NCBI GenBank assembly: GCA_964583985.1
Contig: CAZOYD010000007.1
Location: forward strand, 1 to 33,687
DNA: 33,687 nt
Direction of reading: 5' to 3'
Origin: an uncultured archaeon
Lineage (GTDB): Archaea > Asgardarchaeota > Lokiarchaeia > Sigyniarchaeales > SOKP01
Shown: positions 1,590 through 30,232 of the stretch, piece by piece
Position numbering within the stretch: the stretch's first letter is position 1
Layout: every line of letters begins with the position of its first letter
Program-made: the position numbers and the translations under genes
Notes under the pieces: generated by a model
Database searches by the model: none
Seen by the model: only the letters and a program-made list of their open reading frames with translations
Told to the model about the DNA's origin: nothing

Positions 1590-2207
1590 ATGAGCGAAAA
1601 TGTAGATAAATACGTAAAACGTAAAGTATACTCGGGTACGAACTCAAGAATTGCTAATAAATTCGTGGATGCCGGATTAGAAAAAATAAGGGCTTGTATA
1701 AACTGTGGTACGTGCTCTGGTTCTTGTCCATCAGGAAGAAGAACGGCTATCCGCACGCGATCCATCATACGTCGAGCTCTAACAGGAGATGAATCTGTAT
1801 TAAAAGATATTGATATCTGGTTGTGCTCAACATGTTATTATTGCTATGAAAGGTGTCCAAGAGACATACCTGTCACGGACATGATCATAAAACTGAGAAA
1901 TATTGCTGTAGAAGAAGGGCACATATTAGATTCTCATTTTGGATTGGCTAATAATATTTTTTGGGTCACCGGTCATGGAGTACCTGCTAATGGAGAAGCT
2001 AATAAAAAATGGCAAGATCTAAGAGTCTCTTATGGGTTGCCACCCTTACCTCCCACGGTTCACATGCATCCAGAAGCGGTTAAAGAATGCCAAGATTTAA
2101 TGAGATCAGTCGGATTTAGAAAATTAATGGACGATATTGAAGAAAAAAAGGCGAAAGAAAAAGCTGAAGCTGAAAAAGAAAAAAATCCGGAGGAAAAACA
2201 AAAATGA
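1590..2207 (+). CDS. hdrC: Heterodisulfide reductase subunit C
   Basis: Two ferredoxin motifs, CINCGTCSGSCP and IWLCSTCYYCYERCPR; ATGA overlap with hdrB. Confidence 0.95.
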   Translation: MSENVDKYVKRKVYSGTNSRIANKFVDAGLEKIRACINCGTCSGSCPSGRRTAIRTRSIIRRALTGDESVLKDIDIWLCSTCYYCYERCPRDIPVTDMIIKLRNIAVEEGHILDSHFGLANNIFWVTGHGVPANGEANKKWQDLRVSYGLPPLPPTVHMHPEAVKECQDLMRSVGFRKLMDDIEEKKAKEKAEAEKEKNPEEKQK

Positions 2208-3154
2208 GTGAAAAAAAGAATTTAAGATATGGATTTTTTTTAGGCTGCGTCGCCCCAAATCGATATCCTCAGATAGAAGTTTCAATACGAGCCGTTTTTG
2301 AGCACCTAGGAGCAGAACTTCTCGATTTAGAAGGAGCTTCGTGTTGTCCGGCGCCGGGAGTTTTTCGTGCTTTCCATATTCCGACATGGCTCGTAATAGC
2401 AGCACGCAACATTACACTCGCAGAAGAATTAGGTGTAGACATTGTTACTGGATGTAATGGGTGTTATGGAACTCTAAGAGATGCGTGGTATGAACTTGAA
2501 CATGAGCCTGAGTTAAAGAAAATGGTCAATGAACATCTTGCTAAAATTGGCAGAGTATATAAGGGTAGTATCGAACCTAAACACGTCGTTCAAGTGTTAT
2601 ATCAAGACATGGGAATTGATTACTTGAGGGGTTATATAAAACATAAATTTACAGATCTCAAAGTAGGAGTCCATTATGGCTGCCACATTGTGAAACCTTC
2701 CGATAAAAGGCCATGGGGTGGAGAATATGAAGATCCGAGATTTCTTGATGAAATTGTTGAGTTAACGGGTGCTAAAAGCATAGATTATAAAGATAAGTTC
2801 ATGTGCTGCGGGGCTGGGGGGGCATTAAGAACTGCTGTTAAGGAAGTTTCAGCGGATTTTTCTAGAGAAAAATTAGAAAACATGAGAAATGCGGGGTGCG
2901 ATATTGTAATTGATTGTTGCCCATTCTGCCACCTCCAACTCGATTTAGGGCAGATGGAAGCAAATAATACGTATAAAGATATGATTGGAGAACCTTATAA
3001 AATTCCAGTAATTTACATTACTCAACTTCTCGGGTTAGCTTTTGGCATAGATCCAAATCGTCTTGGTCTCGTACGAAATCACAATTTAACGGGAGTCTCA
3101 CCATTCATCCCAATAGATTCATTTTTACAAAAAGTTAAGGAACAACTCACTTAG
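2204..3154 (+). CDS. hdrB: Heterodisulfide reductase subunit B (two CCG domains)
   Basis: FLGC...SCCPAPG...GCNGC and HYGCH...MCCGAGG...CCPFCHLQLD motifs. Confidence 0.95.
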   Translation: MSEKKNLRYGFFLGCVAPNRYPQIEVSIRAVFEHLGAELLDLEGASCCPAPGVFRAFHIPTWLVIAARNITLAEELGVDIVTGCNGCYGTLRDAWYELEHEPELKKMVNEHLAKIGRVYKGSIEPKHVVQVLYQDMGIDYLRGYIKHKFTDLKVGVHYGCHIVKPSDKRPWGGEYEDPRFLDEIVELTGAKSIDYKDKFMCCGAGGALRTAVKEVSADFSREKLENMRNAGCDIVIDCCPFCHLQLDLGQMEANNTYKDMIGEPYKIPVIYITQLLGLAFGIDPNRLGLVRNHNLTGVSPFIPIDSFLQKVKEQLT

Positions 3155-3164
3155 GAGGATTATC

Positions 3165-5183
3165 ATGACAGAAACCGAAAAACAAATAAAAATAACGGGA
3201 AAAGAAATACCTAAAATAGGTGTTTATGTTTGTCACTGCGGTATTAACATAGCGGGCGTTATAGACGTAGTTAAACTAAAGGATTATGCATTAAGTCTTC
3301 CAAATGTCGTTCTCGCGCGCGAATATAAATTCATGTGTTCGGATAATGGACAAAATCTTATTAAAGATGATATTGAAGCAGGTTTAATAAATAGAGTAGT
3401 AGTTGCGGCATGTTCACCACGAATGCATGAATCCACATTTAGAATAACTTGTAAAGAAGCGGGTTTAAATCAATTCCTCTTTGAACAAGCTAATATTAGG
3501 GAACATGCAACTTGGGTCAATATGAATGATCCTGAAGGAGCTTATGACATCGCAAAAGATCATCTTCGAATGGCCGTTGCGAAGGCAAGTAAGTTACAAC
3601 CATTAGAAGTTCAAAGAGTAAGCGTAGAACCCTCGTGTTTAATTATTGGAGCAGGAATCGCTGGAATGAATTCCGCTTTAGATTTAGCTAAGGAAGGATA
3701 TAAAGTATATCTTGTTGAAAAAACTCCCACAATTGGAGGACATATGGCTCAACTTGATAAAACATTCCCAACCATGGATTGCTCAGCTTGCATCATCACA
3801 CCACGAATGGTAGATGTCGCTCGAGAAAAAAATATCGAACTTCTTACTTATTCTGAAGTTGTAGATGTCGCAGGTTATGTTGGCAATTTTGAAGTTACTA
3901 TTAAAAAAAAACCACATTATGTTGATCAAAAAGTCTGTACTGCCTGTGGTGCTTGCGTTGAATCTTGTCCAGTATCAGTAGGTAATGAATTTGAACTAGG
4001 CATGGCACCTAGAAAAGCAATATACATTCCGTTTCCCCAAGCGGTACCTGGACAATACACTATCGACATGGAACATTGTATAAAATGCGGAATTTGTGCG
4101 CGACCTGAAGTGTGCGAACCAGATGCAATTAGATATGATGATAAACCAGAATTTCTTAAAGTAAAGGTGGGCACTATAATTGTTGCCACGGGATGGGATC
4201 CTTACGATCCAACTCCACTTAAACAATATGGATATGGTAGATATCCAAATGTCATCACTGCATTTCAAATGGAACGCTTACTGAGCTCTTATGGACCCAT
4301 GTTAGGAAAACCTGTCAGACCATCAGATCTAAAAGCTCCTCACAGCATTGCCTTTCTCCAATGCGTCGGAAGTCGAAATTTTAGAGAAGGTGGAAATAAA
4401 TACTGTTCCAGGGTTTGTTGCATGTATGCGACGAAACAAGCCAGGCAATACAAGGAAAAGCATCCAGAAAGTGATGTATATATTTTTTACATTGATATCA
4501 GAGCATTCGGCAGGGGTTATGAAGAATTTTACGAATCTGCTGCAGAAAATTACGGAATAGAATACATTAGAGGAAGAATCGCAGAAGTTACCGAAGACAA
4601 AGATCATAACATCATTATTAGGGCGGAAGATACATTGATGCAAACGCCAATCGAATTAAAAGTTGACATGTTCGTTTTATCTATAGGGCTTGAGGCAGTT
4701 GCCAATGCCGCCGAAATATCCTCATTATTAAGCATTCAAAGATCTGCTGACGGATTTTTTATGGAAGCCCATCCGAAATTACGTCCAGTTGATACTTTAA
4801 CTGATGGAATTTTTATCGCAGGGGTGGCTCAAGGACCAAAAGATATCCCGGATACGGTCGCCCAAGCGAAAGGAGCAGCTTCCAGCGCATCAGCTTTAAT
4901 GGCACAAGGAGAAGTTGAAATAGAACCATATTATTCGGTAGTGCTGGATCATCTCTGTTCTGGATGTCGTAGTTGCCAATCTTTATGTCCTTTCGGTGCA
5001 ATCGATTTTGACGAATTTAAGAAAGTCGCTATTGTAAATCCAGCACTTTGTAAGGGTTGTGGTACTTGTGTATCAGCATGTCCTTCAGGTGCAATGGTTC
5101 AAAATCACTTTGCAAATATTCAACTAAATTCAATCATAAACGTAGCAGTGAAACAGCCCGCAATTGAAAATGGCGGCAAATAA
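3165..5183 (+). CDS. hdrA: Heterodisulfide reductase subunit A (FAD, Fe-S; Cys form)
   Basis: GVYVCHCGINI, ACSPRMHE, GAGIAG, LDKTFPTMDCSACI, inserted 2x[4Fe-4S] domain, QCVGSR, YCSRVCC, GPKDI, C-terminal ferredoxin domain; SD AGGAGG at the hdrB stop. Confidence 0.97.
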   Translation: MTETEKQIKITGKEIPKIGVYVCHCGINIAGVIDVVKLKDYALSLPNVVLAREYKFMCSDNGQNLIKDDIEAGLINRVVVAACSPRMHESTFRITCKEAGLNQFLFEQANIREHATWVNMNDPEGAYDIAKDHLRMAVAKASKLQPLEVQRVSVEPSCLIIGAGIAGMNSALDLAKEGYKVYLVEKTPTIGGHMAQLDKTFPTMDCSACIITPRMVDVAREKNIELLTYSEVVDVAGYVGNFEVTIKKKPHYVDQKVCTACGACVESCPVSVGNEFELGMAPRKAIYIPFPQAVPGQYTIDMEHCIKCGICARPEVCEPDAIRYDDKPEFLKVKVGTIIVATGWDPYDPTPLKQYGYGRYPNVITAFQMERLLSSYGPMLGKPVRPSDLKAPHSIAFLQCVGSRNFREGGNKYCSRVCCMYATKQARQYKEKHPESDVYIFYIDIRAFGRGYEEFYESAAENYGIEYIRGRIAEVTEDKDHNIIIRAEDTLMQTPIELKVDMFVLSIGLEAVANAAEISSLLSIQRSADGFFMEAHPKLRPVDTLTDGIFIAGVAQGPKDIPDTVAQAKGAASSASALMAQGEVEIEPYYSVVLDHLCSGCRSCQSLCPFGAIDFDEFKKVAIVNPALCKGCGTCVSACPSGAMVQNHFANIQLNSIINVAVKQPAIENGGK

Positions 5184-13471: not shown

Positions 13472-14872
13472 TTACATTTTAAAATAATTCGCAGCGTTAT
13501 TATAACAAACATTTTCAATCATTTCCCCTAATAAATTCATATCAGCTGGTATTTTTCCTTTTTCAACATCCATTCCAATTATATTGCATAATATCCTTCG
13601 AAAATATTCGTGCCTTGGAAATGAAAGAAAACTTCTTGAATCTGTAGTCATTCCAATAAAGTGATATAACAAACCAAGATTTGATAATGAATTAATTTGT
13701 TTTGTGATCCCATCAATCTGATCTAAAAACCACCAACTTGGTCCAAATTGAATTTTCCCAGGACAAGTCTCATCTTGAAAATTTCCAATCATGGATGCAA
13801 CCATTTCATTATCTCTTGGATTGAGATTATAAATCACTGTTTTAGTGAGTTCATTTGATTGGTCAAGACGATCTAAAAATTTTGCCATATCTCTACTCAG
13901 GTTATAGTCTCCTATTGTATCACAACCAACATCAGGGCCTAAATTATTAAATAATCGAGTGTTTACATTGCGAAGTGCTCCAATATGGTATTGTTGAACC
14001 CAACCCCTCTTATGATTTAACCTTCCAACTTCAAATAAAAAAGCAGATTTAAATTTTGATGCTTCCAAATCGGACAACTCATTATTTGAAAGGATTTTTT
14101 GAAATATCATTTCAATATCTTGATCGGAATAGTTTTTGGCATATAAATGATCAACTCCATGGTCAGCTATGCGACAACCGTTATTATGGAAGTACTTATG
14201 ACGAATTCTTATTGCTTCTATCAAGCTAGAAAAATTTACTATTGGAACTTCAGATATTTCACCTAATTGTCGAATATACTTTATAAAATGCGCAGTATTT
14301 TCAATATTCATTGCACTATCGGGTCTAAAAGTTGGAAAAACCTTAACTTTATATCCATCCGATTTTATCTTCTTATGAAAATCCAAAGAGTCGATTGGAT
14401 CGTTTGAAGTACAGATTAATTTTACATTCATCATTTCTATGAGGTTTTTGATTGAGTATTCAGAAGATTTTAATAATTTAGAACAATGGTCATAAATCTT
14501 CTTGCTTGTTCCTGAATTTAGTAAATCTGAAATCTTAAAATAACGTTTTAATTCCAAATGAGTCCAATCGTAGAGTGGATTTCGAATTGTTTTAGGTACA
14601 GTTTCTGCCCACTTTTCGAATTTTTCATAATCTGTAGCATTACCCGTGCAAAAATACTCAGATATTCCATTAGCACGCATCAATCTCCATTTATAATGAT
14701 CTTCAGCAAGCCATGCTTGTCCAATATTATCAAAATTAATGTCATTAGCGATATCTTCTGCTGGTAAATGGCTATGAAAATCATATATCGGCATAGTTTT
14801 GGCGTGTTCGTGAAATAAATATTGAGCGGTTTTTGTTTCCAATAGAAAATTATCATCCATAAAAGGTTTCAT
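13472..14872 (-). CDS. uxaC: Uronate (glucuronate/galacturonate) isomerase
   Basis: FMDDNFLL, PIYDFHSHL, DHYKWRLMRANG, NPLYDWTHLEL, PTFRPD, QYHIGALRN, WWFLD, TDSRSFLSFPRHEYFRR. Confidence 0.96.
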   Translation of the reverse strand: MKPFMDDNFLLETKTAQYLFHEHAKTMPIYDFHSHLPAEDIANDINFDNIGQAWLAEDHYKWRLMRANGISEYFCTGNATDYEKFEKWAETVPKTIRNPLYDWTHLELKRYFKISDLLNSGTSKKIYDHCSKLLKSSEYSIKNLIEMMNVKLICTSNDPIDSLDFHKKIKSDGYKVKVFPTFRPDSAMNIENTAHFIKYIRQLGEISEVPIVNFSSLIEAIRIRHKYFHNNGCRIADHGVDHLYAKNYSDQDIEMIFQKILSNNELSDLEASKFKSAFLFEVGRLNHKRGWVQQYHIGALRNVNTRLFNNLGPDVGCDTIGDYNLSRDMAKFLDRLDQSNELTKTVIYNLNPRDNEMVASMIGNFQDETCPGKIQFGPSWWFLDQIDGITKQINSLSNLGLLYHFIGMTTDSRSFLSFPRHEYFRRILCNIIGMDVEKGKIPADMNLLGEMIENVCYNNAANYFKM

Positions 14873-15024: not shown

Positions 15025-16524
15025 TTACGGATCATTTCTGAAAGGGTGACGAGCATTTTCCGCATTATCAATTGCATCTTCAACCGTAGGAAGCCCCTCG
15101 ATTGCTTTTCGAATGGCATTCCTCGTAGCTTTATAGTTATTTATAAAAACTCTTTTACGACTACTCGCACTAGGATGTATAAAAACATTTACTATTATTA
15201 CAATGTCTTCAGAAGCAGCTTTTGGTAGTATCCCATCTTCAACACATTGTATTACGGCTTTAGCAATTGCAGCTTGTGCTGGTCCGTACGTTAAACTTGC
15301 ATGCCTAAGAGAAGTGACTTTTACTGTTGGGATCATTACTGTTGCTGGTTTTACTTGCATATTTGGTTCTAATATTACTTGTAGCCCTTCACGTCCTTTT
15401 GCTGGATGTGTCAAAGCTTTTGCATAAGCCTCTCCTACAGGTCCTTTCTTATCTCCAATTAATAGATCTATATGGGCCAGTTCTACTCGATCTCCTACTA
15501 AAGATTCACCTACTTTTAAGCTGAAATCTGATATCTTTTCAGGTGTAACACCAACGGCATAAAATCGACTTGTGAGTTCTTTTTCTCCAATCTCAAACTT
15601 GAGCTCTTTCTTTTCTATCAATCCTAATTTTTCTAATTCTACACGAAATTCATCTCTTAACTCATATGAAAGGGAATCTCCCAAAATTATTGGTTGACGC
15701 GTTATGCCTACAGGTATTCCCATAAGATTAAGACATTCCTTAGCACCCAATGCACCCGAATTAATTAGCATTCTTGCTATTTTTTGTACCTTTTTTTGCA
15801 GTGTTTGAGCTTCTGTTAAGCGATTATTTTGAACTAAATCATACAATTCTAGCCATATTTTAGGAATAACATTAGCTGACCCCAAGATGCATCCTGCAGC
15901 TCCACCTGCTAATGCTCCAAGCACCAACTCATCCCATCCGATTAAGACAGAAATTTTATCACTAACTTTTTCTAATAACGCAGAATGGTATTTATAATCG
16001 CCACTTGAATCTTTAATTGCCACAAAATTTTCGATATCAACTAAATCTTCTACCACGGTCCAAGGTAAATCAACTCCAGTGCACACGGGAATGTTATATA
16101 GTACAATTGGAATGTCTGTTTTTTCAGCGATGGAGAAATAATGATCGTATAACCCCTTGGCTTTTGGCTTTAAATAGTAAGGAGTGACGATAATAACTGC
16201 ATCTGCTCCTATATCCGTTGCAGCTTTACTAGCATCGATAACTAATTTAGTCCCCGTTTCTCCTGTACCAGCAATTACTGGCACTCTTCCATTCGTCTCA
16301 TCAACAACAATTTCAATCACTTTCAGTCGTTCCTTAAAAGTCATATTCACAAATTCTCCAGTTGTACCACAAGGCACAAGTCCAGTTACACCCTGTTCGA
16401 TGAAATAATTAACTAAATATCTCAATTGATCTTCATTTATCGATTCATCCTTATTGAAGGGAGTTACCATCGCAGGCATTACTCCTTTTGGTCTATAATC
16501 AAATTTTCCCATATTATTTTTCAC
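15025..16524 (-). CDS. Fusion of a DHDPS/NAL-family class I aldolase (aa 1-~303) and formaldehyde-activating enzyme Fae (aa ~336-499)
   Basis: N-terminal part: VTPF, GTTGE, TPYY, LYNIP (Y143), IKDSSG (K171), GWDE, GSANV. C-terminal part: VGESLVG..ELAHIDLLIG..GPVG, PN..VKP.T, GPAQAAIAKAV, VFIHP, NY.ATR.AI..A, RHPF. One uninterrupted frame; start GTG 16524 or ATG 16512. Confidence 0.92.
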   Translation of the reverse strand: MKNNMGKFDYRPKGVMPAMVTPFNKDESINEDQLRYLVNYFIEQGVTGLVPCGTTGEFVNMTFKERLKVIEIVVDETNGRVPVIAGTGETGTKLVIDASKAATDIGADAVIIVTPYYLKPKAKGLYDHYFSIAEKTDIPIVLYNIPVCTGVDLPWTVVEDLVDIENFVAIKDSSGDYKYHSALLEKVSDKISVLIGWDELVLGALAGGAAGCILGSANVIPKIWLELYDLVQNNRLTEAQTLQKKVQKIARMLINSGALGAKECLNLMGIPVGITRQPIILGDSLSYELRDEFRVELEKLGLIEKKELKFEIGEKELTSRFYAVGVTPEKISDFSLKVGESLVGDRVELAHIDLLIGDKKGPVGEAYAKALTHPAKGREGLQVILEPNMQVKPATVMIPTVKVTSLRHASLTYGPAQAAIAKAVIQCVEDGILPKAASEDIVIIVNVFIHPSASSRKRVFINNYKATRNAIRKAIEGLPTVEDAIDNAENARHPFRNDP

Positions 16525-16532
16525 TCTAATTT

Positions 16533-17819
16533 TTATTTATAATAATGCAAATTTCTTGCCGCAATAAAGGACAATCCGTTCCTTGTCAGTGCCTCTGCTG
16601 TTGAATTAACAGCATCATTCCGATCTAAATGGTTAATCCGAAGAAAATCCCATAATCCGGCCTTTATTATTTCTTCCTTAGGTAAAAAGTATTCAAGTAT
16701 ATCAGTAGGATGTTCTCGTTTTTCATCAACTTCAACGTTTCCCCCTTCATGCTTGGCACTTACATTCTTAACTTTTTTTGCTAAATCTAACAACTCATCC
16801 CTTCGATCATATGGCTGGCGAACAATACTTTTCCAAGTCTCCGTTATATGGTGCTCCAATCTAACGACATCCTCAAATCCGAAAGGTTTTCGGATATAAG
16901 CAGCCATTTCAATTGTGTCATTATTTACAGCGTTTGATAAATTAAACCCAATTAATGGGCTAGTTCCATCTTCTCGAGCGAATAATTTTGCCGTGAGTAA
17001 TGTCCATAAACAAGAATAAGGATTGTCGTTACCCATATAAACGCTAATTTTAAATTCATTATTTATTCCAAGTTTATGAATAAAATAACCTAAAAGCACG
17101 GTCCCAGGGTTGACATTTAGAACTTGTTTAATCCCATAGTTTGTATAATAATAAAGGAACTCATCTATCCATTTAAGTGCATAGTCATTTGGTTGTCCGA
17201 CACCTCCAAAATAACCAGTAATTGTATCTGGTCCGCCCAAATGTACATTAACAGGCATTCCATCTGGACCTGGAGCAGTTCCCTTTGTATCAAGCGTTTC
17301 AACCCAACTCGAACCAATAACTTGCATCGCCGCAGCCATAGCAGGCAAATCTCCATCTTCCTCTTGTTCTTTCATGCGTCTTACGCGAATGATTCTACCA
17401 GGAACTAATTTTTGATTTTCAAGTGCATCTTTAGCAATATCAATTAAAAAAGGAAAATATTGGCACGCAGATAATTCTAAGGTTACAGCAAAATCTTCAT
17501 TAAATTGCATTTCTGAAAACTGCTCTCCTAATATTTTTCTTCTATAATCATTAACGCTAATAAAGGAATGATTGTCACGCTCATTTATTAGCCACTCTAT
17601 ATCCTTAACATAATCAGGATTCTTTCTATTAATTTTATCAATTAAATTATCAAATTTGCTTGCTTCTTCTGCTTTCCTATTTATCTCATTGATACCACCA
17701 TATTTATCTAATATGGTAAATAAATCATTAATTAATGGATTTTCTTCATCCAGCAAAAAATCATTGACTGATTTTAGGGCATCCTTAGGGATTTCTAATT
17801 TTTTTCTTAAATCTTTCAT
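16533..17819 (-). CDS. Uncharacterised soluble protein, probably enzymatic, immediately upstream of the aldolase-Fae fusion
   Basis: 428 aa with motif-like blocks (VTLELSACQYFP, ETLDTKG, NVHLGGPDTITGYFGGVGQPN, FKISVYMGNDNP, GFNLSN, EHHITE, SAKHEGG); 8-nt gap to the next ORF. Confidence 0.85.
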   Translation of the reverse strand: MKDLRKKLEIPKDALKSVNDFLLDEENPLINDLFTILDKYGGINEINRKAEEASKFDNLIDKINRKNPDYVKDIEWLINERDNHSFISVNDYRRKILGEQFSEMQFNEDFAVTLELSACQYFPFLIDIAKDALENQKLVPGRIIRVRRMKEQEEDGDLPAMAAAMQVIGSSWVETLDTKGTAPGPDGMPVNVHLGGPDTITGYFGGVGQPNDYALKWIDEFLYYYTNYGIKQVLNVNPGTVLLGYFIHKLGINNEFKISVYMGNDNPYSCLWTLLTAKLFAREDGTSPLIGFNLSNAVNNDTIEMAAYIRKPFGFEDVVRLEHHITETWKSIVRQPYDRRDELLDLAKKVKNVSAKHEGGNVEVDEKREHPTDILEYFLPKEEIIKAGLWDFLRINHLDRNDAVNSTAEALTRNGLSFIAARNLHYYK

Positions 17820-18167: not shown

Positions 18168-18533
18168 TCAATAACAATTTATTGCATTCACAATTTCATC
18201 TAATAAGTGATCCAAAGAAAAGGGTTTCTCATAGAAGCTAAAAGCTCCAATTGATAAAGCTTCTTCTTTGATACTCATATCAGCACTAATAAAAATTATC
18301 TTTACTTTTTTATCTATTTGTAAAATCTCTTTAGTAGCCTCAAGTCCTGATTTAATTGGCATACGATTATCCATTAAAATTAATTTTGGTTTCGTCTCGA
18401 AAGATTTGAACATAAGGATTGCTTCTTCTCCATCCGATGCAATACCAATCACTTCATATCCACTGAAAGTCAAAAATTTCTCAAAAAAAAATTGAACAGC
18501 TGGTTCATCATCTACTATAAATATTTTTTCCAG
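18168..18533 (-). CDS. Stand-alone response-regulator receiver (CheY-like) protein, apparent CTG start
   Basis: Extending the frame upstream of TTG 18473 gives LEKIFIVDDEP, the required acidic pair; also ILMDNRMPIKSG, ISA, KPF. CTG at 18533 lies 6 nt after SD AGGTGA. Confidence 0.9.
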   Translation of the reverse strand: MEKIFIVDDEPAVQFFFEKFLTFSGYEVIGIASDGEEAILMFKSFETKPKLILMDNRMPIKSGLEATKEILQIDKKVKIIFISADMSIKEEALSIGAFSFYEKPFSLDHLLDEIVNAINCY

Positions 18534-18984: not shown

Positions 18985-21372
18985 TTAATAGCTTATATTA
19001 TTATCTGCCACATTCCAAGAATTTATTATGGAATTAAACACCCTTGGCGGATTATCTCCGAGATAAAGAGAGCCATGATTCATTAGATCAAAACAAGAGC
19101 TAATAATCATATCACCCCCACCTAAAGCATCATTTTCACACCAATAATTCGTACCGCTTGACCCGTGAATGAATGTAGAGTATTTTGAAATCCATGTATT
19201 ATTTGCTATCATCGTCCATTTAATAACAGGGTTATCGATATAGCCAATTAATGTGCTTCTCTCAATATATACATTAGTATAATTGCTATTATGGTGTATC
19301 ACATACAATCTGTCTGAATGTCCTTGGATTTGTGAATCTATAATATTTAAATATGAATTACTGTTTCCTCCCGTAATATTAATTAACATAATAGCCCTAT
19401 TATTAGGATCACCGCAATCCTCTATATGAACAAGAGTGTTATTTCCACTAATTTCAAGCGTTTTAATATTTAAAATTTTTAATTCATTAAATTCAATATT
19501 TTGTCCTTCTGAGACATTAATAAATGTTTCAGAAATACTTGTAATACCATGTGTATCATGCCCATCAATAAAGATTGGATAATTTCCAAGAATTAATTCA
19601 TCTTCTGTTGAAATATCTTCAGTTAAAGATATGCTACAATCTTCTTTATTTATGGATTTGATAGCATCTTGAAGTGTTATATAACCATCAAAACCTCCTT
19701 TTCCTACCGTCTTAATTGGATTAATATAACTGAAATTTCCATCTAATCCTGCATTTTGATAATTCCCAGAATAATCAGCACCCGTGATTGGAACATCACA
19801 GATAATATCTCTCCCATCTAATCCTCTCCATTGGTCAGTAGGAGTTGAAGGAGTTGGAGGTGAAATTCTTGGGAAATGGAAGAAATTGTCTTTTATGATG
19901 ATTAAAGAAGGTTGTCGAACCAATTCAATCCCAGCAGGTAAATAGCAATCCATTATATCTATAATTTCCGATGTGTTAATAATCATTCTACCAATACCAT
20001 CATTCTGTTCACTCCAAAGATTCCAATGCGAGATTTTATTATTCTCAACAGCACCACCCAAACCAAGTAATCTGTACCATTTATATTCGTGGTGATCTGC
20101 AAGAATAACCGGATCAGTAAAACCCGGATAATCACCCGAAAACGTCCAATCACCAGGAGTTATGGTGTGTAAAGTTAACCAAGCACCATTCACACCATTA
20201 GTAGAATCATCCGAACCTTGAAGTGTTGGGAAGCTTGTCAGGAGTTCTAAAAAAGCATTTTCATCTGGAACTGCCACCGAAAACTGACCAATATTTGTAG
20301 ATTCATATAACGATTCGCCAACATTTACTGCTATATATGTCATATTTTCAGCATAGGTAGTTAAAAATCCATCTTGAACATTCTCTATGTTTACCCCATC
20401 TGAATAATGAGGTTTACCCACAATTATATTTTTACCAATACCATTATTAAGACCCATGGCTAATTTTGAACTTGTTGCATATAAAGACCAGTCTCCTCCA
20501 ATATAAGGTGATGTGGCACTGAAATCTGTATCAGAGAAGAATCTGACTTGACTAACCATACTTTTACCAACATTTGTATTATTATGAGTACTCCCAAATT
20601 CAAAAGTTGTCGATGTTATCTCGCAATTTTCAAACCATATATCCAGAGGATCTTCATGTTCTCCGGTTAAACTTACGCGAGCGTTTTCACTAAAACCACA
20701 ACTTTTAAAGTGGACTGTTCGATATGGGCCTGTTGAACCACCAGTACGATTATTTTCCTTGATATATCCCTTATTGAAATTGCAATCTGTAAATCTACCT
20801 GCTGTAGCGCCTATTTCCATCATTATATTATTACTTGAATTTGCCTCGATTCGCATATTCCACATTCTATAAAAATCTGCTGATGTACTTCTGAGAGGAT
20901 AATTACTTGAATTGCTGCCAATATTTACAATCTTAGCTGAGGCACCATCCCATGATCTTTCAACACCAAGTATATTAACACCAGAGGGAGCATGAATCTG
21001 CTCGTTATAAACTCCCGCATAAACCATAACAGTTGCTCTCGCACCACCTGTAGGAGCCCATTCAGATATTGCAAAGTCTATTCCTGCTTGTATTGTACTA
21101 AATTGATGAGCATTAGAATCATTTGTAAAGGAAGGACTCACAAAACAAGTCTTTTCTGGATTAAAATTATCATCAAAATAATTTGTAATAGCATCAGGAC
21201 TATTTATGTAATAACCAAGAGTCCCTGCGACAATAGCAACAGCTAGAACAATAATGATTCCAGCACTAATTCTTTTTCTCATCTGCATCTTATTTTTAGC
21301 TCGTATTTTATCATGAGGAAGATACGAGATATTTAGAAATCTTTTTTTAGAATTTATAAAATTAAACATCAT
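18985..21372 (-). CDS. Membrane-anchored extracellular pectin-lyase-like beta-helix protein with inserted discoidin-like module
   Basis: TM segment aa ~35-56; beta-helix cap motifs FSTIQAGID...VMVYAGVYNEQI and GYITLQDAI; I-x-D/N-C/S rungs; many N-x-S/T sequons; SD AGGAGTGA. Confidence 0.7.
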   Translation of the reverse strand: MMFNFINSKKRFLNISYLPHDKIRAKNKMQMRKRISAGIIIVLAVAIVAGTLGYYINSPDAITNYFDDNFNPEKTCFVSPSFTNDSNAHQFSTIQAGIDFAISEWAPTGGARATVMVYAGVYNEQIHAPSGVNILGVERSWDGASAKIVNIGSNSSNYPLRSTSADFYRMWNMRIEANSSNNIMMEIGATAGRFTDCNFNKGYIKENNRTGGSTGPYRTVHFKSCGFSENARVSLTGEHEDPLDIWFENCEITSTTFEFGSTHNNTNVGKSMVSQVRFFSDTDFSATSPYIGGDWSLYATSSKLAMGLNNGIGKNIIVGKPHYSDGVNIENVQDGFLTTYAENMTYIAVNVGESLYESTNIGQFSVAVPDENAFLELLTSFPTLQGSDDSTNGVNGAWLTLHTITPGDWTFSGDYPGFTDPVILADHHEYKWYRLLGLGGAVENNKISHWNLWSEQNDGIGRMIINTSEIIDIMDCYLPAGIELVRQPSLIIIKDNFFHFPRISPPTPSTPTDQWRGLDGRDIICDVPITGADYSGNYQNAGLDGNFSYINPIKTVGKGGFDGYITLQDAIKSINKEDCSISLTEDISTEDELILGNYPIFIDGHDTHGITSISETFINVSEGQNIEFNELKILNIKTLEISGNNTLVHIEDCGDPNNRAIMLINITGGNSNSYLNIIDSQIQGHSDRLYVIHHNSNYTNVYIERSTLIGYIDNPVIKWTMIANNTWISKYSTFIHGSSGTNYWCENDALGGGDMIISSCFDLMNHGSLYLGDNPPRVFNSIINSWNVADNNISY

Positions 21373-21581: not shown

Positions 21582-23546
21582 TCACCCAATCTCGGGTATT
21601 AAAACGATAAAAGTAGAACCTTTCTTATAATTTCCTTCGATTCTATCTTGAACCCAAATTTTTCCATTAAGAAAACACATTATAGTATTCACCAGAGATA
21701 ATCCAATACCCATCCCATGAGCACTCCTACCATCTAAATAACCTCTCTCAAAAATTTTCTTTTTTCTTCCATCTTCTATACCCTTCGCATTGTCCGAGAA
21801 TTCAATCCTAAGATATTTTTTATTTTTTTCCTCAAATTTAGAGATAGAGATATCAATTTGAACTATAGAATTTTCATTATGTTTTATAGCATTAAAAAGA
21901 ATATTTTCAAAAACATCTTCAAGAAATTCATTAGCTTTAACAAAAAGTTTTTTATTAACAGAATCAAATTGAATATTTACTTGTTTTTCTTTTTCAAGAT
22001 TTTTTAACCTTAGTATCACTCTTTCTAACAAATGGCAAACATCCATTTTTTCAAAATCAAATTTTTTTTCTTCTATTGTAGAAAGTTTTTGGACATTCTT
22101 TATTAAATTCTTTCCTCGAAAGATTTGATCTTGAATAATCTTTAGATTCTTCATTATAGTTTCAGAATTTTGTGGCTGTGAAATTAAAAGTTCACTAACT
22201 TGTAATCCCGATAAACAAATCTGCAGAATATTATTTATATCATGCGATAATAAGTCTTTATAAAATTCCGCTCGTTTATATGCTTGACGAAAACTATTTT
22301 CGGATTCTTTTAATGCTTTTACCGCACTTACACGTTCACTGATATCTAGTTGACTCCCCCAAATTCTAATTAAAAAACCCTCTTCTATTATCCCAATGGT
22401 ATTGTTAGAAATATAAACATTATTTCCATCTTTATCAACCTCTACTGATTCTGCATTTAATATCTTATATTCTGAACGGATCCAAGAACTTAAAAATTCA
22501 ATATTTTCTGGAATTTCCTTAGAGCCATGGAAATCCAGTATGCGAGCTCCAATAAGCTCATTAGCATTTGAAAAGCCATATAAGTGAGCAAATTTATTGT
22601 TACAGCTTGCAATATACCCGTATTTATAAATCGCTTCAATTTGATCTTTCTCAGGAAGAATTATAGATATGGGTTGATCAAACTCAATAATGGATGTTCC
22701 TTCCCCGCTATGTTCGATAAAACTGCGATACTTTTCTAAAGTTTCCTCTAATTTTTCTTCAGCTATTACACGTTGAGTTATATCATTATGATAAATAATT
22801 GCATTGGTTACTTCCCCATCTTGATTTAATATAGGAGAAACGGTGACCTCTAAAATACTTCTTGTTTTTTTTTTGATTCCTGTTAATTTTTTAAATGTAA
22901 CTGGTTTATAATCAATAATAATTTTAGCCGGTTCACCTTTTTTAAAAACATTTTTTACTAATGTTAAGTTATTTCCCTCAGCTATTATAGGATCATCAAA
23001 GATATTGAAATTATTTACCAATACTTCATGATCTGCATCCCATAAATCTTGACATGTCTTGTTTTGCTTAAGAAATGTTCCTTTATTGTCGGAAATCCAC
23101 ATACTAAATGGACTTTGCTCAAATATGCTATAATGAAGGTTTTCATGATTAAAACGCTCAGTTATATCAAAAGAAAATCCTATAATACCTTTTACTTTAC
23201 CCTCATCATTGACAAAAGGAATCTTATTAGAATTCAACCACAAAGTACCTTCCTTCGTTGGCCATGGTTCTATTACACCAAATTTAGGTTTACCGGTTTT
23301 AATTATCTCTAGATCGTCTTGAAAGTATGCTTGAGCTCGTTCTTTTGGGTATAATTTAAAACAACTCATGCCGGTTAACTTATCCTTGGTTGTATTGTGA
23401 AAATCAGCAAAATATTTATTTACTCGGAGAAGATTATTTTTAGAATCTTTATAAAAAACCAATCCCGGAATATTATCCAAAATAATTTCCATTTCTTTAT
23501 TAATTTCCTTATACTTTTCTAAAGATATATCCTCGGAATTACTCAT
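21582..23546 (-). CDS. Cytoplasmic sensor histidine kinase with three PAS/PAC domains
   Basis: Three PAS domains ending DITER, DITQR and DISER; H-box SHDINN, N-box FENILFNAIKH, G1 SDNAKGI, G2 GMGIGL. The ORF track starts at TTG 23564. Confidence 0.92.
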   Translation of the reverse strand: MSNSEDISLEKYKEINKEMEIILDNIPGLVFYKDSKNNLLRVNKYFADFHNTTKDKLTGMSCFKLYPKERAQAYFQDDLEIIKTGKPKFGVIEPWPTKEGTLWLNSNKIPFVNDEGKVKGIIGFSFDITERFNHENLHYSIFEQSPFSMWISDNKGTFLKQNKTCQDLWDADHEVLVNNFNIFDDPIIAEGNNLTLVKNVFKKGEPAKIIIDYKPVTFKKLTGIKKKTRSILEVTVSPILNQDGEVTNAIIYHNDITQRVIAEEKLEETLEKYRSFIEHSGEGTSIIEFDQPISIILPEKDQIEAIYKYGYIASCNNKFAHLYGFSNANELIGARILDFHGSKEIPENIEFLSSWIRSEYKILNAESVEVDKDGNNVYISNNTIGIIEEGFLIRIWGSQLDISERVSAVKALKESENSFRQAYKRAEFYKDLLSHDINNILQICLSGLQVSELLISQPQNSETIMKNLKIIQDQIFRGKNLIKNVQKLSTIEEKKFDFEKMDVCHLLERVILRLKNLEKEKQVNIQFDSVNKKLFVKANEFLEDVFENILFNAIKHNENSIVQIDISISKFEEKNKKYLRIEFSDNAKGIEDGRKKKIFERGYLDGRSAHGMGIGLSLVNTIMCFLNGKIWVQDRIEGNYKKGSTFIVLIPEIG

Positions 23547-23761
23547 TTTCAAACATTTTAACAAATTATTTCTTCTAATGTCTTTTATATTTTTTTAATT
23601 TTAAAATATATCTATAATATTTTGAACAGAATAGAATTCTTTTGAAAATATTAAGGCATTTAGCATCAATCTGCGCGTTAAATCGCATTGAAATTTATAT
23701 AAATTTATATTTTTGGATGGATATATTAAAGTATAATTATAAAAATATCAAAATTTAAAGC

Positions 23762-26853: not shown

Positions 26854-28284
26854 TTATGATTGACTTCTCTTAGCATTAAAAATCCTGGTCTTCTGTTTTA
26901 ACATTGAAACACCTTGTACTGCTTCTTCAATACTATGAAAAACTGGGATGTTTGACAATTCCAAAGCTTCAGTTATAGCACCATATTTAGGAATGTAAGG
27001 AATAAAGCAAACCACGGGCTTTTTTGAAATAGTAACTGTATTAGCTATTCTTCTCCCTATTTGAAAAGAAATGGAAGGAGTATAAGGTAATATCAATACG
27101 ATAATACATTCTACGCGTTTAATATTCGATAAATACGTTATAATAGCCTCTAAATCTTCATCTTTAGCAGATCCAGTGAGATCTATAGGATTTCCAAAAG
27201 TTGATATACTTTTAGCGACAGGATTAACTAATTCTCTCATTTCTTGTTGTTCTTCTTGAGTGAAGTCCACTGCTCTTAGCCCATAATTCTTGAGTAAATC
27301 TGCGCAAATAACTCCATGACCACCAGAAATAGACAATATTGCAACATTTCCATTATTTACAGTATTGGGATCGAATGGCTTTTTCTTACGAGATAATACG
27401 TCTAATAATTTTAAATCGGTTAATAATTCGAGTTCAGTAAAAGGTTGTGTTATTAAGTTTTGTTTTAGTGCTGCTTGAAGTATTTTTTCATTACCAGAGA
27501 GAGATGCTGTATGAGATTGGGTAGCCTTTTTTCCCTTATCGGACAAACCCCCAAAATATACAATGATGTCATCTTCCGATTTTCTTGCTAATTGGAGAAA
27601 ATCCCTGCTTTTTGATGGTTTAAATGCTTCCAAATAAAATGCAATATTACGAGTCTCTTCATCTCGTTTACTAAAATAATCTAAAAGCATTGTTTCATCC
27701 ACGACTGCTCGATTTCCTATAGAAACGGCAGTAGACACTCCAATTTTAATTTGATTAAATTTATGAAAGAATTGATCAACTAAAACTCCTCCTGATTGGC
27801 TTATTAAGGCAACTGAGCCTTTAGGAGGGCGTGTGATACGCTCTGTAGGCATAAAAATTGTATCTAATAAGGGAGGGGAATAAACACCGATGCAATTTGG
27901 ACCGAGTATTGCAATGTCATTATCGGTGGCAATTTGGATAAGTTTTTGTTGACGCTTTACACCTTCTCCTCCAATCTCTGCAAATCCACCACTAATGATT
28001 ATACACCCTGGGATTTTATAATCCGCACATTGTTCTACATAATCTAATGTTGCTTTTGCAGGGACTGCTATAACTAAAACATCGGGAACTTTGGGTAATT
28101 CTTCTATTTTTGTGAATAGATTTACACCCTCAACTTCTCCCCCCTCCGGATGAATCCCAAACACTTCAACTTGCATTTCAAAGTAATTTTTAATAAAAAT
28201 GATCCTTCCTGGGCTTAAGGGATTTTTTTTGCTTATGCCAACAACAGCCATTGTTTTTGGTCTAAAAAGACTTTGTAAATTCAT
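26854..28284 (-). CDS. acdA: ADP-forming acyl-CoA synthetase, alpha subunit
   Basis: LFRPKTMAVVG, ISGGFAE, LGPNCIG, ISQSGG, SIGN, phospho-His motif SHTASL, SGGHG, NPIDLTG. The ORF track starts at TTG 28296. Confidence 0.88.
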   Translation of the reverse strand: MNLQSLFRPKTMAVVGISKKNPLSPGRIIFIKNYFEMQVEVFGIHPEGGEVEGVNLFTKIEELPKVPDVLVIAVPAKATLDYVEQCADYKIPGCIIISGGFAEIGGEGVKRQQKLIQIATDNDIAILGPNCIGVYSPPLLDTIFMPTERITRPPKGSVALISQSGGVLVDQFFHKFNQIKIGVSTAVSIGNRAVVDETMLLDYFSKRDEETRNIAFYLEAFKPSKSRDFLQLARKSEDDIIVYFGGLSDKGKKATQSHTASLSGNEKILQAALKQNLITQPFTELELLTDLKLLDVLSRKKKPFDPNTVNNGNVAILSISGGHGVICADLLKNYGLRAVDFTQEEQQEMRELVNPVAKSISTFGNPIDLTGSAKDEDLEAIITYLSNIKRVECIIVLILPYTPSISFQIGRRIANTVTISKKPVVCFIPYIPKYGAITEALELSNIPVFHSIEEAVQGVSMLKQKTRIFNAKRSQS

Positions 28285-28310
28285 TTTGTTCATCAAAAGA
28301 AATTATTAAT

Positions 28311-29168
28311 TTATTCAGAAAGATGTTTTGAATTAAATTCATAAAATAGTTTAATATCCTCAGGTGACAATCTAATGTCTGCTGCCTTTGCGTTTTCAAT
28401 GACATGCTTAATACTAAATGCTTTAGGAATAGTAATGATATTTTCATGATTAATTAACCAAGCAATGGCAATTTGTTGGATTGTCGAGTTATATTTTTTA
28501 GCCAGACTTTCTAACTTTTCTCTTATTTCGCCTTTTAATTTTGTGTACCCTTTATGAGCAAGTGGACTGTATGCCGTTACCATAAGATTATTCTTTTGAT
28601 AATAAGGGAGAGATTCTTGTATGTGTTTTTGGTAAGTAATGTTAATATGAAGTTGATTATCTACTAATTCTTCTTTTTTAAGCGCTTCTTGAGCATATTT
28701 AAATTGTTTCACGCTAAAATTACTTACTCCAATATATCTCGTTTTTCCATTTTTAACTAAATCTTCGAGTACTTTCATTTCTTTTTTGATAGAAATGAAT
28801 TTTGAGGGCCAATGAATTAAATAGAGATCTACATGATCCAGCTTTAATCGGTTTAAACTCTTATCACATGCTTGTTTCATTGAATTTTTACTAAAATGAA
28901 TAGGGAACAGTTTTGTAGTGATAAATAGGTCGTCACGAGGATATTCCTTAATTAATTCTCCCAATACTTCTTCTGCCTTTCCTAAACCATAAAATTCTGC
29001 AGTATCTAAATGTGTCATGCCCAATTCAATCCCCTTTCTCAAGGTAGATTTAATTTCTTCATAAAACTTTTTCCCTTTAGATAATCCTTTTGATCTCCTG
29101 ATACCCCAGAGACCTTGTCCTAAAATTGGAATGTACTCTCCAGTTTTGGCTAATTCTATTTTTCTCAT
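28311..29168 (-). CDS. Aldo/keto reductase
   Basis: DTAEFYG, ITTK, DLYLIHWP, IGVSNF, AYSPL, IPKA. Confidence 0.93.
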   Translation of the reverse strand: MRKIELAKTGEYIPILGQGLWGIRRSKGLSKGKKFYEEIKSTLRKGIELGMTHLDTAEFYGLGKAEEVLGELIKEYPRDDLFITTKLFPIHFSKNSMKQACDKSLNRLKLDHVDLYLIHWPSKFISIKKEMKVLEDLVKNGKTRYIGVSNFSVKQFKYAQEALKKEELVDNQLHINITYQKHIQESLPYYQKNNLMVTAYSPLAHKGYTKLKGEIREKLESLAKKYNSTIQQIAIAWLINHENIITIPKAFSIKHVIENAKAADIRLSPEDIKLFYEFNSKHLSE

Positions 29169-29391
29169 AATTCTTATTTTTTAATCTAAAAATTTAACTC
29201 AACTGATTATAAATTATAAATTCAATTATCATTTTCGGTTTTAGGAATTATGATATAAGTCATTATATCTCCCACGAAAACAAAATTTCTTACTTTGTAT
29301 CAACTCGCTTTTATTATTACAAAATTCTTTGAATAAGCATGGCATTTTGCACGTGTTTAGATATTTAAATAGTAAGTTTATCACCGTTTAG

Positions 29392-30228
29392 TTAATGTTC
29401 AAAAAATTTACGTATTTTATCGATTCTTTCTTCTCTTGATAAGTTGTTAGCTAATGGGTTATGTTCCCCGTATAATTCTTTATGATACACTTGTTTACTA
29501 GCTTGATAAAAAATTCCTAACATATATTTATGAGATTTTCGAGCAGTAGCAAGACCTTCTTCTTTGGTCGCAGGTATTGCATCAAGAAACTCGATCTTTT
29601 TATTATATTCTGACCAAGCATGATAAGGAACAGCAGGCTGTAATATTTCGATAAAAGAAAATCCCTCATGTTCTACTGCTTGTATTATAGTTTCCGTTAA
29701 ATGATCTATCTTACCGGAAAAACATCTTGCCACGAATGTAGCTCCCGCTTCAATCATTAATGACAAAGCATTAAAAGGATTTTCAAGACTTCCTTTAGGT
29801 GTAGATGGTCCATCCCAACCCTTCTCGCTAAGAGGAGAAAATTGTCCTGTGGTCAATGCATATACGCTATTATTATGCAATAACATCGTAATATCTTGAT
29901 TTCTTTTTGCTGCAAACATTGTGTGTTCTAATCCTTCTCCCAAACCATTTCCATCTCCCGAGAAAGTTATAACTTTTAATTTTGGGTTAGCAAGCTTGAT
30001 ACCTTGTGCCGTTGCAACGTCTCTACCATGAAGTGAATATAGTCCGCTTAAATTTAAATAATCAAATATTTTGGCATGGCATCCTATTCCAGCAGTGATA
30101 ACCATGTCTTCTCGCTTGATACCTTTTTGCTCTAAACCCAGAATTGCTTTTTGTACAGCCGTAAGAATACCAAAATTTCCACATCCTGGACACCATGTAA
30201 TTTCAGCATCAGTTTTCAGATCTGCCAT
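29392..30228 (-). CDS. korB: 2-oxoacid:ferredoxin oxidoreductase beta subunit (KorB type)
   Basis: WCPGCG, GIGC, HGR, GDG...NN..YALT.GQ.SP; start ATG 30228 after SD GGGAGGTG. The fourth cluster Cys position reads Ala. Confidence 0.9.
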   Translation of the reverse strand: MADLKTDAEITWCPGCGNFGILTAVQKAILGLEQKGIKREDMVITAGIGCHAKIFDYLNLSGLYSLHGRDVATAQGIKLANPKLKVITFSGDGNGLGEGLEHTMFAAKRNQDITMLLHNNSVYALTTGQFSPLSEKGWDGPSTPKGSLENPFNALSLMIEAGATFVARCFSGKIDHLTETIIQAVEHEGFSFIEILQPAVPYHAWSEYNKKIEFLDAIPATKEEGLATARKSHKYMLGIFYQASKQVYHKELYGEHNPLANNLSREERIDKIRKFFEH

Positions 30229-30232
30229 GTTT

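Follow-up and report, generated by a model that had tools for sequence, protein, structure and literature searches.

An aldolase-Fae fusion gene of Asgard archaea and Bathyarchaeia, candidate for pterin-coupled C1 transfer to a 2-oxoacid

We analyzed a stretch of 33,687 nucleotides (nt) from an uncultured archaeon of the Lokiarchaeia (GenBank assembly GCA_964583985.1, contig CAZOYD010000007.1, positions 1 to 33,687; hereafter, the window). One of its genes, on the minus strand (15025..16524), joins in a single open reading frame (ORF) a class I aldolase domain of the DHDPS/NAL family to a formaldehyde-activating enzyme (Fae) domain, and appears to be a new variant assembled from known domains. 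We favor, with modest confidence, the view that this fusion is a bifunctional one-carbon (C1) transfer enzyme, which moves a C1 unit at the formaldehyde level between methylene-tetrahydromethanopterin (methylene-H4MPT) and C3 of a pyruvate-type 2-oxoacid (i.e., an analogue of the ketopantoate hydroxymethyltransferase PanB). That a C1 unit passes between the pterin and a 2-oxoacid we consider likely; for the substrate pair pyruvate/4-hydroxy-2-oxobutanoate (HOB), the chances seem to us even; and only tentatively do we propose that the net direction is biosynthetic, toward homoserine and threonine. The evidence comes from the active-site residues of the fusion, from a conserved neighboring gene (hereafter, the partner gene), and from the distribution of both genes relative to H4MPT, PanB, and homoserine enzymes.

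The fusion ORF is uninterrupted and encodes 499 amino acids when counted from its GTG at 16524. Since its homologues have a length of 495-496 amino acids and since a Shine-Dalgarno-like motif, GAGTGA, stands 9-14 nt before an ATG at 16512, the true gene is likely 15025-16512, with an ATG start and 495 amino acids. The stop codon of the upstream partner gene lies 8 nt before the GTG and 20 nt before the ATG, and the two genes are probably co-transcribed. A previous reading made from the letters of this DNA (the sequence-only reading) had described a DHDPS/NAL barrel joined to a full Fae in one ORF. The ORF is indeed intact, both Pfam domains are found in it, and all the motifs cited in that reading are present, i.e., GTTGE at 53-57, Y143, K171, and H351 of AHID among them. 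That reading had also raised the possibility of an assembly chimera or of a single-genome oddity. This was ruled out by a word-index search that returned more than 120 protein clusters carrying both Pfam domains at 82-94% identity, drawn from NCBI, JGI, ENA, and Logan assemblies, some of them on contigs of 200-500 kb. Moreover, among 150 sampled Asgard genomes, many families gave full-length matches (38-89% identity), and a Bathyarchaeia form exists at 54-58% identity.

The aldolase domain (residues 12-293, 15646..16491, minus strand) is matched by PF00701 with an E value of 3e-76, and its best match among solved structures is the M. jannaschii DapA (2YXG, E 2e-53). The domain carries GTTGEF at 53-58, Y116/Y117, Y143, W197, and the Schiff-base K171 (codon 16012-16014), and K171, Y143, and GTTGE are invariant or nearly so in 19 diverse fusions. 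In the E. coli DapA, R138 is the arginine that binds the carboxylate of aspartate semialdehyde. The corresponding YN(V)P(S/G)R(T) stretch of three solved DapA structures reads YNIPVCT in the fusion (HMMER alignments), so that Cys148 (codon 16081-16083) stands at the arginine position; no fusion variant has R there, the residue being C, V, or L. A second DHDPS-family gene of the same genome is found on contig C37, where it is cut by the contig start and followed by dapB (254 bits), next to lysA- and dapF-like ORFs identified by sequence inspection only. The fusion itself never adjoins dapB in the loci examined. Because of the replacement of the arginine by Cys148 and of the separate dapA-dapB-lysA-dapF locus, we conclude from residues and gene content that the fusion is not the lysine enzyme DapA, despite its database label (public records name it 4-hydroxy-tetrahydrodipicolinate synthase). 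In a tree of aldolase domains, the fusions group with a few stand-alone relatives in a single clade, whose signature is a Phe after GTTGE, no Arg at 148, and W/H/Y/F at 197. The bulky F58 and W197 would narrow the aldehyde pocket to suit formaldehyde.

Several observations were made alongside on DHDPS-family genes. The presumed genuine dapA (C37:6-161) is assembled over its last 53 residues, and the Arg138 position lies outside them. No Fae gene lies near the apparently stand-alone aldolase-domain relatives P0399 and P0406, and one apparent split results from a frameshift. Two other proteins, P0499 and P0503, together with around 30 related Bathyarchaeota proteins of 297 amino acids, are named 4-hydroxy-tetrahydrodipicolinate synthase and carry Phe where DapA has its Arg, and S-N-G-E-A in the place of T-T-G-E-S; this group may also be misnamed.

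The Fae domain (residues 338-495, 15040..15513, minus strand) is complete. Indeed, PF08714 matches it with an E value of 7e-57 and TIGR03126 (one_C_fae) scores 189 bits against a cut-off of 118, over profile positions 2-160 of 160. Its H351 (codon 15472-15474) aligns with the His of VAHID in the Methylobacterium Fae 1Y5Y. The two domains are connected by a segment of about 40 residues (294-337, 15514..15645, minus strand), delimited from the AlphaFold2 model and from alignment conservation. The linker of around 30 residues proposed by the sequence-only reading thus holds as a joining segment and fails as a simple tether: the model (predicted local distance difference test score, pLDDT, 86.6; predicted template-modelling score 0.83) places a β-hairpin at about 301-318, which is conserved among fusions. 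The same reading had made its proposal dependent on H4MPT enzymes in the host, and they are there. Since the host genome carries Mch (344 bits) and, besides the fusion, a canonical Fae-Hps (527 bits), the host can, judging by these genes, make use of the Fae domain.

The partner gene (16533..17819, minus strand) was defined from the ORF call, its AlphaFold2 model, and its conserved adjacency to the fusion. It encodes 428 amino acids, modelled with a pLDDT of 90.7 as a helical N-terminal domain followed by a TIM barrel, and it is conserved at 79-91% identity, on par with the fusion. No Pfam or NCBIfam family matches it. An exhaustive search of 1.84 billion representatives gave 485 matches, all belonging to its own narrow family and many of them fragments or frameshifted, and the gene was found in at least 592 stretches of species-representative genomes, from Asgard archaea, Bathyarchaeia, and Chloroflexota. 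Fold searches returned generic TIM barrels and no decisive relative: the best VIA-align match was CutC (Z 12.6) in a flat list, the best Foldseek match a class II fructose-bisphosphate aldolase (E 3e-4, TM around 0.3), and the best Atlas match a U32-type barrel (TM 0.56/0.70), with no obvious Cys cluster motif seen by eye in the partner. The Atlas feature search on the partner was uninformative. In Asgard families lacking the partner, the fusion is always adjoined by a conserved protein of about 320 amino acids without a Pfam family (L107:8529-9515, L105:4328-5293, and five more loci). Compared profile to profile with the partner, this protein aligns over 183 columns with a probability of 45% and an E value of 2e-4, and strand motifs coincide, which is suggestive only of a remote homologue.

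Two further loci with partner-family genes deserve mention. In an uncultured archaeon, the start of the partner is overlapped by a very divergent DHDPS-family gene (L088:6919-7959), which encodes 347 amino acids, without Fae and with Ile where DapA has its Arg. A 41 kb contig labelled VirSort (ENA ERZ16303040) encodes a partner homologue of 385 amino acids at about 45-50% identity (L012:8001-9158), surrounded by small unannotated ORFs and by genes of replication or repair (RFC-like AAA, ERCC4, Vsr); this homologue may serve an archaeal virus as an auxiliary metabolic gene.

What speaks most strongly for the proposed net reaction is the set of genes found beside the partner. We called and clustered ORFs in the 80 best partner loci, naming lineages as titled in the records. 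In around 35 Loki-type loci, the partner is followed by the fusion on the same strand; in around 25 Bathyarchaeia loci the two genes are adjacent and divergent; and in four Heimdall-type loci the partner precedes a fusion of 46-49% identity. Eleven Thorarchaeota loci present a vitamin-type S component of an energy-coupling factor (ECF) transporter before the partner, with two tandem fusions elsewhere in the genome, and Hodarchaeota-titled loci present the partner followed by a class I/II aminotransferase. In Chloroflexota and in one high-GC metagenome contig, a PanB-family gene precedes the partner. The partner was found in 30 of 401 Chloroflexota genomes. A PanB-family gene lies within 1.5 kb of it in 23 of these 30 loci and directly upstream on the same strand in 21, the PanB-family proteins sharing 71-81% mutual identity. 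Two Chloroflexota genomes have two PanB each: the canonical copies, encoded away from the partner, score 392 and 386 bits, and the paralogues linked to it score 336 and 334 bits. In the paralogue, the catalytic motifs are kept and a loop is altered; TIGIGAG has become IMSLGSG and CDGQ has become AHGQ. Hence, a bacterial PanB paralogue occupies the place that the fusion holds in archaea with H4MPT enzymes and, because it takes this place beside the partner, we propose that the net reaction of the fusion is a hydroxymethyl transfer. Two Chloroflexota loci carry, beside the partner, an amino-acid dehydrogenase of the Glu/Leu/Phe/Val type with CBS domains, and no Rfam element or riboswitch was found in seven bacterial partner loci.

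A second line of evidence links the system to H4MPT and to homoserine. Three Asgard families of the 150-genome sample possess the partner and not the fusion. In five genomes of these families (87-96% complete), searches gave no match to Fae or Mch and a single PanB per genome. Loci of these families show an operon composed of the partner, a class I/II aminotransferase, homoserine dehydrogenase (Hom, 198 bits), and aldehyde:ferredoxin oxidoreductase. HOB would be the natural 2-oxoacid joining an aldol product of pyruvate and a C1 unit to an aminotransferase and to homoserine dehydrogenase. We also compared the distribution of the fusion with those of Hom and Asd in families and genera bearing anonymous labels, f1 being the window's own family. 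Within f1, genera g3 and g6 have neither fusion nor partner, and have Hom (5/5) and Asd; genera g1, g2, g4, and g5 mostly have fusion and partner, with Hom in 5 of 19 and Asd present. Family f7 has fusion and partner each in 25 of 26 genomes, Hom in one, and strong Asd matches in six. In f12, the fusion is present in 18 of 19 genomes, and the partner and Hom in none (0/19 each), with no Asd over the cut-off; in f13 and in f21, all three genomes have the fusion and none has the partner, Hom, or Asd (0/3 each). Families f3, f4, f8, and f19 have neither fusion nor partner, and have Hom in 16 of 17 genomes as well as Asd, and f14, also without the two genes, has Hom in 2 of 4 and Asd. The distributions of fusion and Hom are thus largely complementary. 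ThrC scores above its cut-off in five out of five Hom-less fusion-bearing Asgard genomes, which include two single-contig genomes and one complete chromosome. Among ten partner-bearing Bathyarchaeia genomes (eight with an adjacent fusion), seven lack a Hom match and five of these seven keep ThrC.

The mechanism that we propose for the fusion would proceed as follows. The Fae domain would reversibly open and close the methylene bridge (CH2=H4MPT <-> H4MPT + HCHO). In the aldolase domain, K171 would form a Schiff base with pyruvate, whose enamine would add to formaldehyde to give HOB, or the reverse. HOB would be linked to homoserine by transamination, and the partner TIM-barrel enzyme would act on the same C4 node, either consuming or supplying HOB. 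The sequence-only reading had suggested a pyruvate aldolase other than DapA that handles formaldehyde together with an H4MPT-loading Fae, probably via HOB. Comparative support for this has been gained from the PanB swap, the homoserine operon, the absence of Fae and Mch matches in partner-only genomes, and the complementarity with Hom; the activity itself and its direction keep the status of a proposal. Because of this complementarity with Hom, we lean toward synthesis. A natural route can then be envisaged, which we put forward as possible and rather short of probable: pyruvate and methylene-H4MPT of the Wood-Ljungdahl pathway would give HOB, then homoserine, then threonine and perhaps the whole aspartate family, with no ATP spent beyond methylene-H4MPT. 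In several Asgard and Bathyarchaeia lineages this route would stand in for Asd and Hom, and in Chloroflexota the PanB paralogue would provide a folate version of it. An orphan TIM-barrel enzyme with a new function would take part.

The same chemistry could run in the catabolic direction, which we judge unlikely, if well worth weighing. HOB, coming from homoserine by transamination or from C4 or 2-keto-3-deoxy sugar acids via the partner, would be cleaved to pyruvate and formaldehyde, the latter being captured by Fae as methylene-H4MPT and oxidized to formate/CO2. The known fusion Fae-Hps runs in the formaldehyde-capturing direction. This precedent favors cleavage, as do the sugar-acid contexts of two bacterial partner loci (one with an IlvD/EDD dehydratase, Dak1/Dak2, and IclR; the other with PfkB kinases, an MFS transporter, GntR, and ROK) and the aldehyde:ferredoxin oxidoreductase of the partner-aminotransferase-Hom operon, which fits an oxidative flow. 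Fhs and FolD, recognized by eye from their N-terminal sequences only, stand in one Chloroflexota locus beside the PanB paralogue and the partner and point the same way, and the host's own Asd and Hom would make a second homoserine route unnecessary. However, cleavage leaves unexplained that searches for Hom and Asd mostly gave nothing where the fusion occurs, even as ThrC is kept, and a wide, highly conserved gene suits core metabolism better than a rare substrate. Another 2-oxoacid could also be the acceptor, i.e., 2-oxoisovalerate (giving ketopantoate, as an H4MPT-dependent replacement of PanB), 2-oxobutanoate, or hydroxypyruvate. The bacterial gene that takes the place of the fusion is itself a ketopantoate hydroxymethyltransferase family member, fusion and partner occur without PanB in one complete Bathyarchaeia chromosome, and the ECF S component that precedes the partner in Thorarchaeota is of a vitamin type. 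We nevertheless find this improbable, since a strong canonical PanB coexists with the fusion in a Thorarchaeota chromosome and in the host genome, since the partner-linked PanB of Chloroflexota is a second, divergent copy, and since the link to homoserine dehydrogenase and aminotransferase points to a C4 substrate; moreover, in characterized DHDPS-family enzymes pyruvate is mostly the donor. The fusion as a PanB replacement in the host was ruled out by the host's own PanB (368 bits), and the ketoisovalerate alternative of the sequence-only reading is weakened by this genuine PanB. Pfam gave no PanB-fold match on the fusion.

Two rivals assign the aldolase domain to other aldehydes. It could be a sugar-acid aldolase of the 2-keto-3-deoxygluconate (KDG) type, with an aldehyde product other than formaldehyde and with Fae serving for detoxification or as a scaffold only. 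KDG aldolases are found within the DHDPS family, and UxaC (glucuronate isomerase; 13472..14872, minus strand, by Pfam and NCBIfam) lies 150 nt downstream of the fusion in the window. This seems very improbable to us: UxaC adjoins in only 1 of 99 related loci, the archaeal KDG-aldolase model gives 119 bits against a cut-off of 390, and a passenger Fae predicts neither the lack of Fae and Mch in five partner-only genomes nor the bacterial swap for a pterin-dependent C1 transferase. Finally, a genuine lysine-pathway DapA carrying a Fae domain would agree with the name in public records and with the TIGR00674 (dapA) score, which is above threshold (236 bits for a cut-off of 206.15). We give it hardly any credence in view of Cys148 at the position of the aspartate-semialdehyde Arg, of the dapA fragment beside dapB, lysA, and dapF, and of the fusion families without detected Asd, which would have no aspartate semialdehyde by the usual route.

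This TIGR00674 score is one of several points that weigh against the C1-transfer enzyme and the homoserine route as we propose them. Some families have the fusion alone and some the partner alone. A tetramer is typical of DHDPS-family enzymes and Fae is pentameric, which puts in question how the fusion assembles and whether formaldehyde could be channelled. The host genome has Asd, Hom, and an adjacent ThrC-like ORF (seen by eye) as well as the fusion, making the proposed route redundant there. The absence of Hom in metagenome-assembled genomes (MAGs) may reflect auxotrophy or incompleteness, and related genomes cannot be counted as independent samples. A search for the canonical homoserine kinase (thrB) gave scores above its cut-off in only 11 of the 150 Asgard genomes, whether the fusion is present or not, so that the path past homoserine is incomplete as read. 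Our observations concern domain anatomy, active-site residues, distributions, and neighborhoods; each catalytic step is inferred from them.

Some fusions are organized in tandem. In the 150-genome sample, one Asgard family carries tandem fusion pairs. The Thorarchaeota chromosome CP070761 presents two overlapping aldolase-Fae genes (L099:484-1881 and L099:1875-3362), the first with a shortened Fae in which the AHID His is replaced (SVSTD) and which ends early, the second being complete; such a pair may form a heteromer.

The window has a G+C content of about 30% and is part of a genome of 3.8 Mb in 138 contigs (completeness 100%, contamination 5.25%). UxaC is outside the proposed system, and the rarity of its adjacency ruled it out as a conserved sugar-acid link to the fusion. 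Next to an ORF of 795 amino acids without a Pfam match (18985-21372, minus strand) lie a PAS histidine kinase (21582-23564), which follows it, and a single-domain response regulator (18168-18473), which precedes it. By comparison with locus L007, these three genes and UxaC look like insertions in an otherwise syntenic block. Farther away, 26854-31891 and 1590-5183 encode an ADP-forming acyl-CoA synthetase type, an aldo/keto reductase, 2-oxoacid:ferredoxin oxidoreductase subunits, and an HdrA/CCG-type cluster. In related MAGs these genes keep synteny with the fusion region, and they agree with a fermentation of 2-oxoacids.

If the proposed function is true, a gene that many Asgard and Bathyarchaeia MAG records call DapA encodes another enzyme, and metabolic reconstructions would miss a link between the H4MPT C1 pool and central C3/C4 metabolism. 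A homoserine skeleton built from pyruvate and reduced C1 would save, at the energy limit, the ATP and reductant of the aspartate kinase/semialdehyde route. This would be a new C1-assimilation branch in energy-starved sediment microbes, the natural counterpart of engineered formaldehyde and pyruvate routes, and the fusion would naturally catalyze, with coupling to a pterin, the reaction that synthetic methylotrophy forces from promiscuous aldolases. The partner family, without Pfam or NCBIfam entry, is a well-defined target for function discovery.

The sequence-only reading knew of no characterized enzyme with this architecture; our literature searches likewise gave none, and no DHDPS-Fae fusion was described in them. 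The closest known arrangement is the Fae-Hps of methanogens (NF009833), in which Fae is also fused to an aldolase-type formaldehyde enzyme in an H4MPT user. However, the domain joined to Fae is a Schiff-base DHDPS barrel in the fusion and an Hps of the orotidine-monophosphate-decarboxylase fold in Fae-Hps, and Fae is C-terminal in the former and N-terminal in the latter. NF009833 aligns to the fusion over positions 2-161 of 392 only (157 bits for a cut-off of 274), and the Fae domains of the fusion and of the host Fae-Hps are about 39% identical. DapA (TIGR00674) is the closest sequence family and shares the pyruvate-binding and catalytic Thr-Thr, Tyr, and Lys; the fusion differs by its replaced Arg, its bulky F58 and W197, and its appended Fae, and the lysine operon keeps its own dapA. 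PanB (PF02548) performs the kind of reaction that we propose, in which a hydroxymethyl group passes between a methylene-pterin and the C3 position of a 2-oxoacid. It has no sequence relationship with the fusion and is a metal-dependent, single-domain, tetrahydrofolate enzyme, whereas the fusion would use two half-reactions on two domains, H4MPT, and probably pyruvate rather than 2-oxoisovalerate. Lastly, in three papers (PMC10022506, PMC10992282, PMC8879981), promiscuous or engineered aldolases, one of them a class II (metal-dependent) pyruvate aldolase, make HOB (there 2-keto-4-hydroxybutyrate) from pyruvate and formaldehyde, and HOB can be transaminated to homoserine. The literature that could be searched describes promiscuous or engineered enzymes only, with no natural dedicated HOB enzyme and no coupling to a pterin. 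Those aldolases act on free formaldehyde, in vitro or in systems that were designed, whereas the fusion would couple the same aldol chemistry to a pterin.

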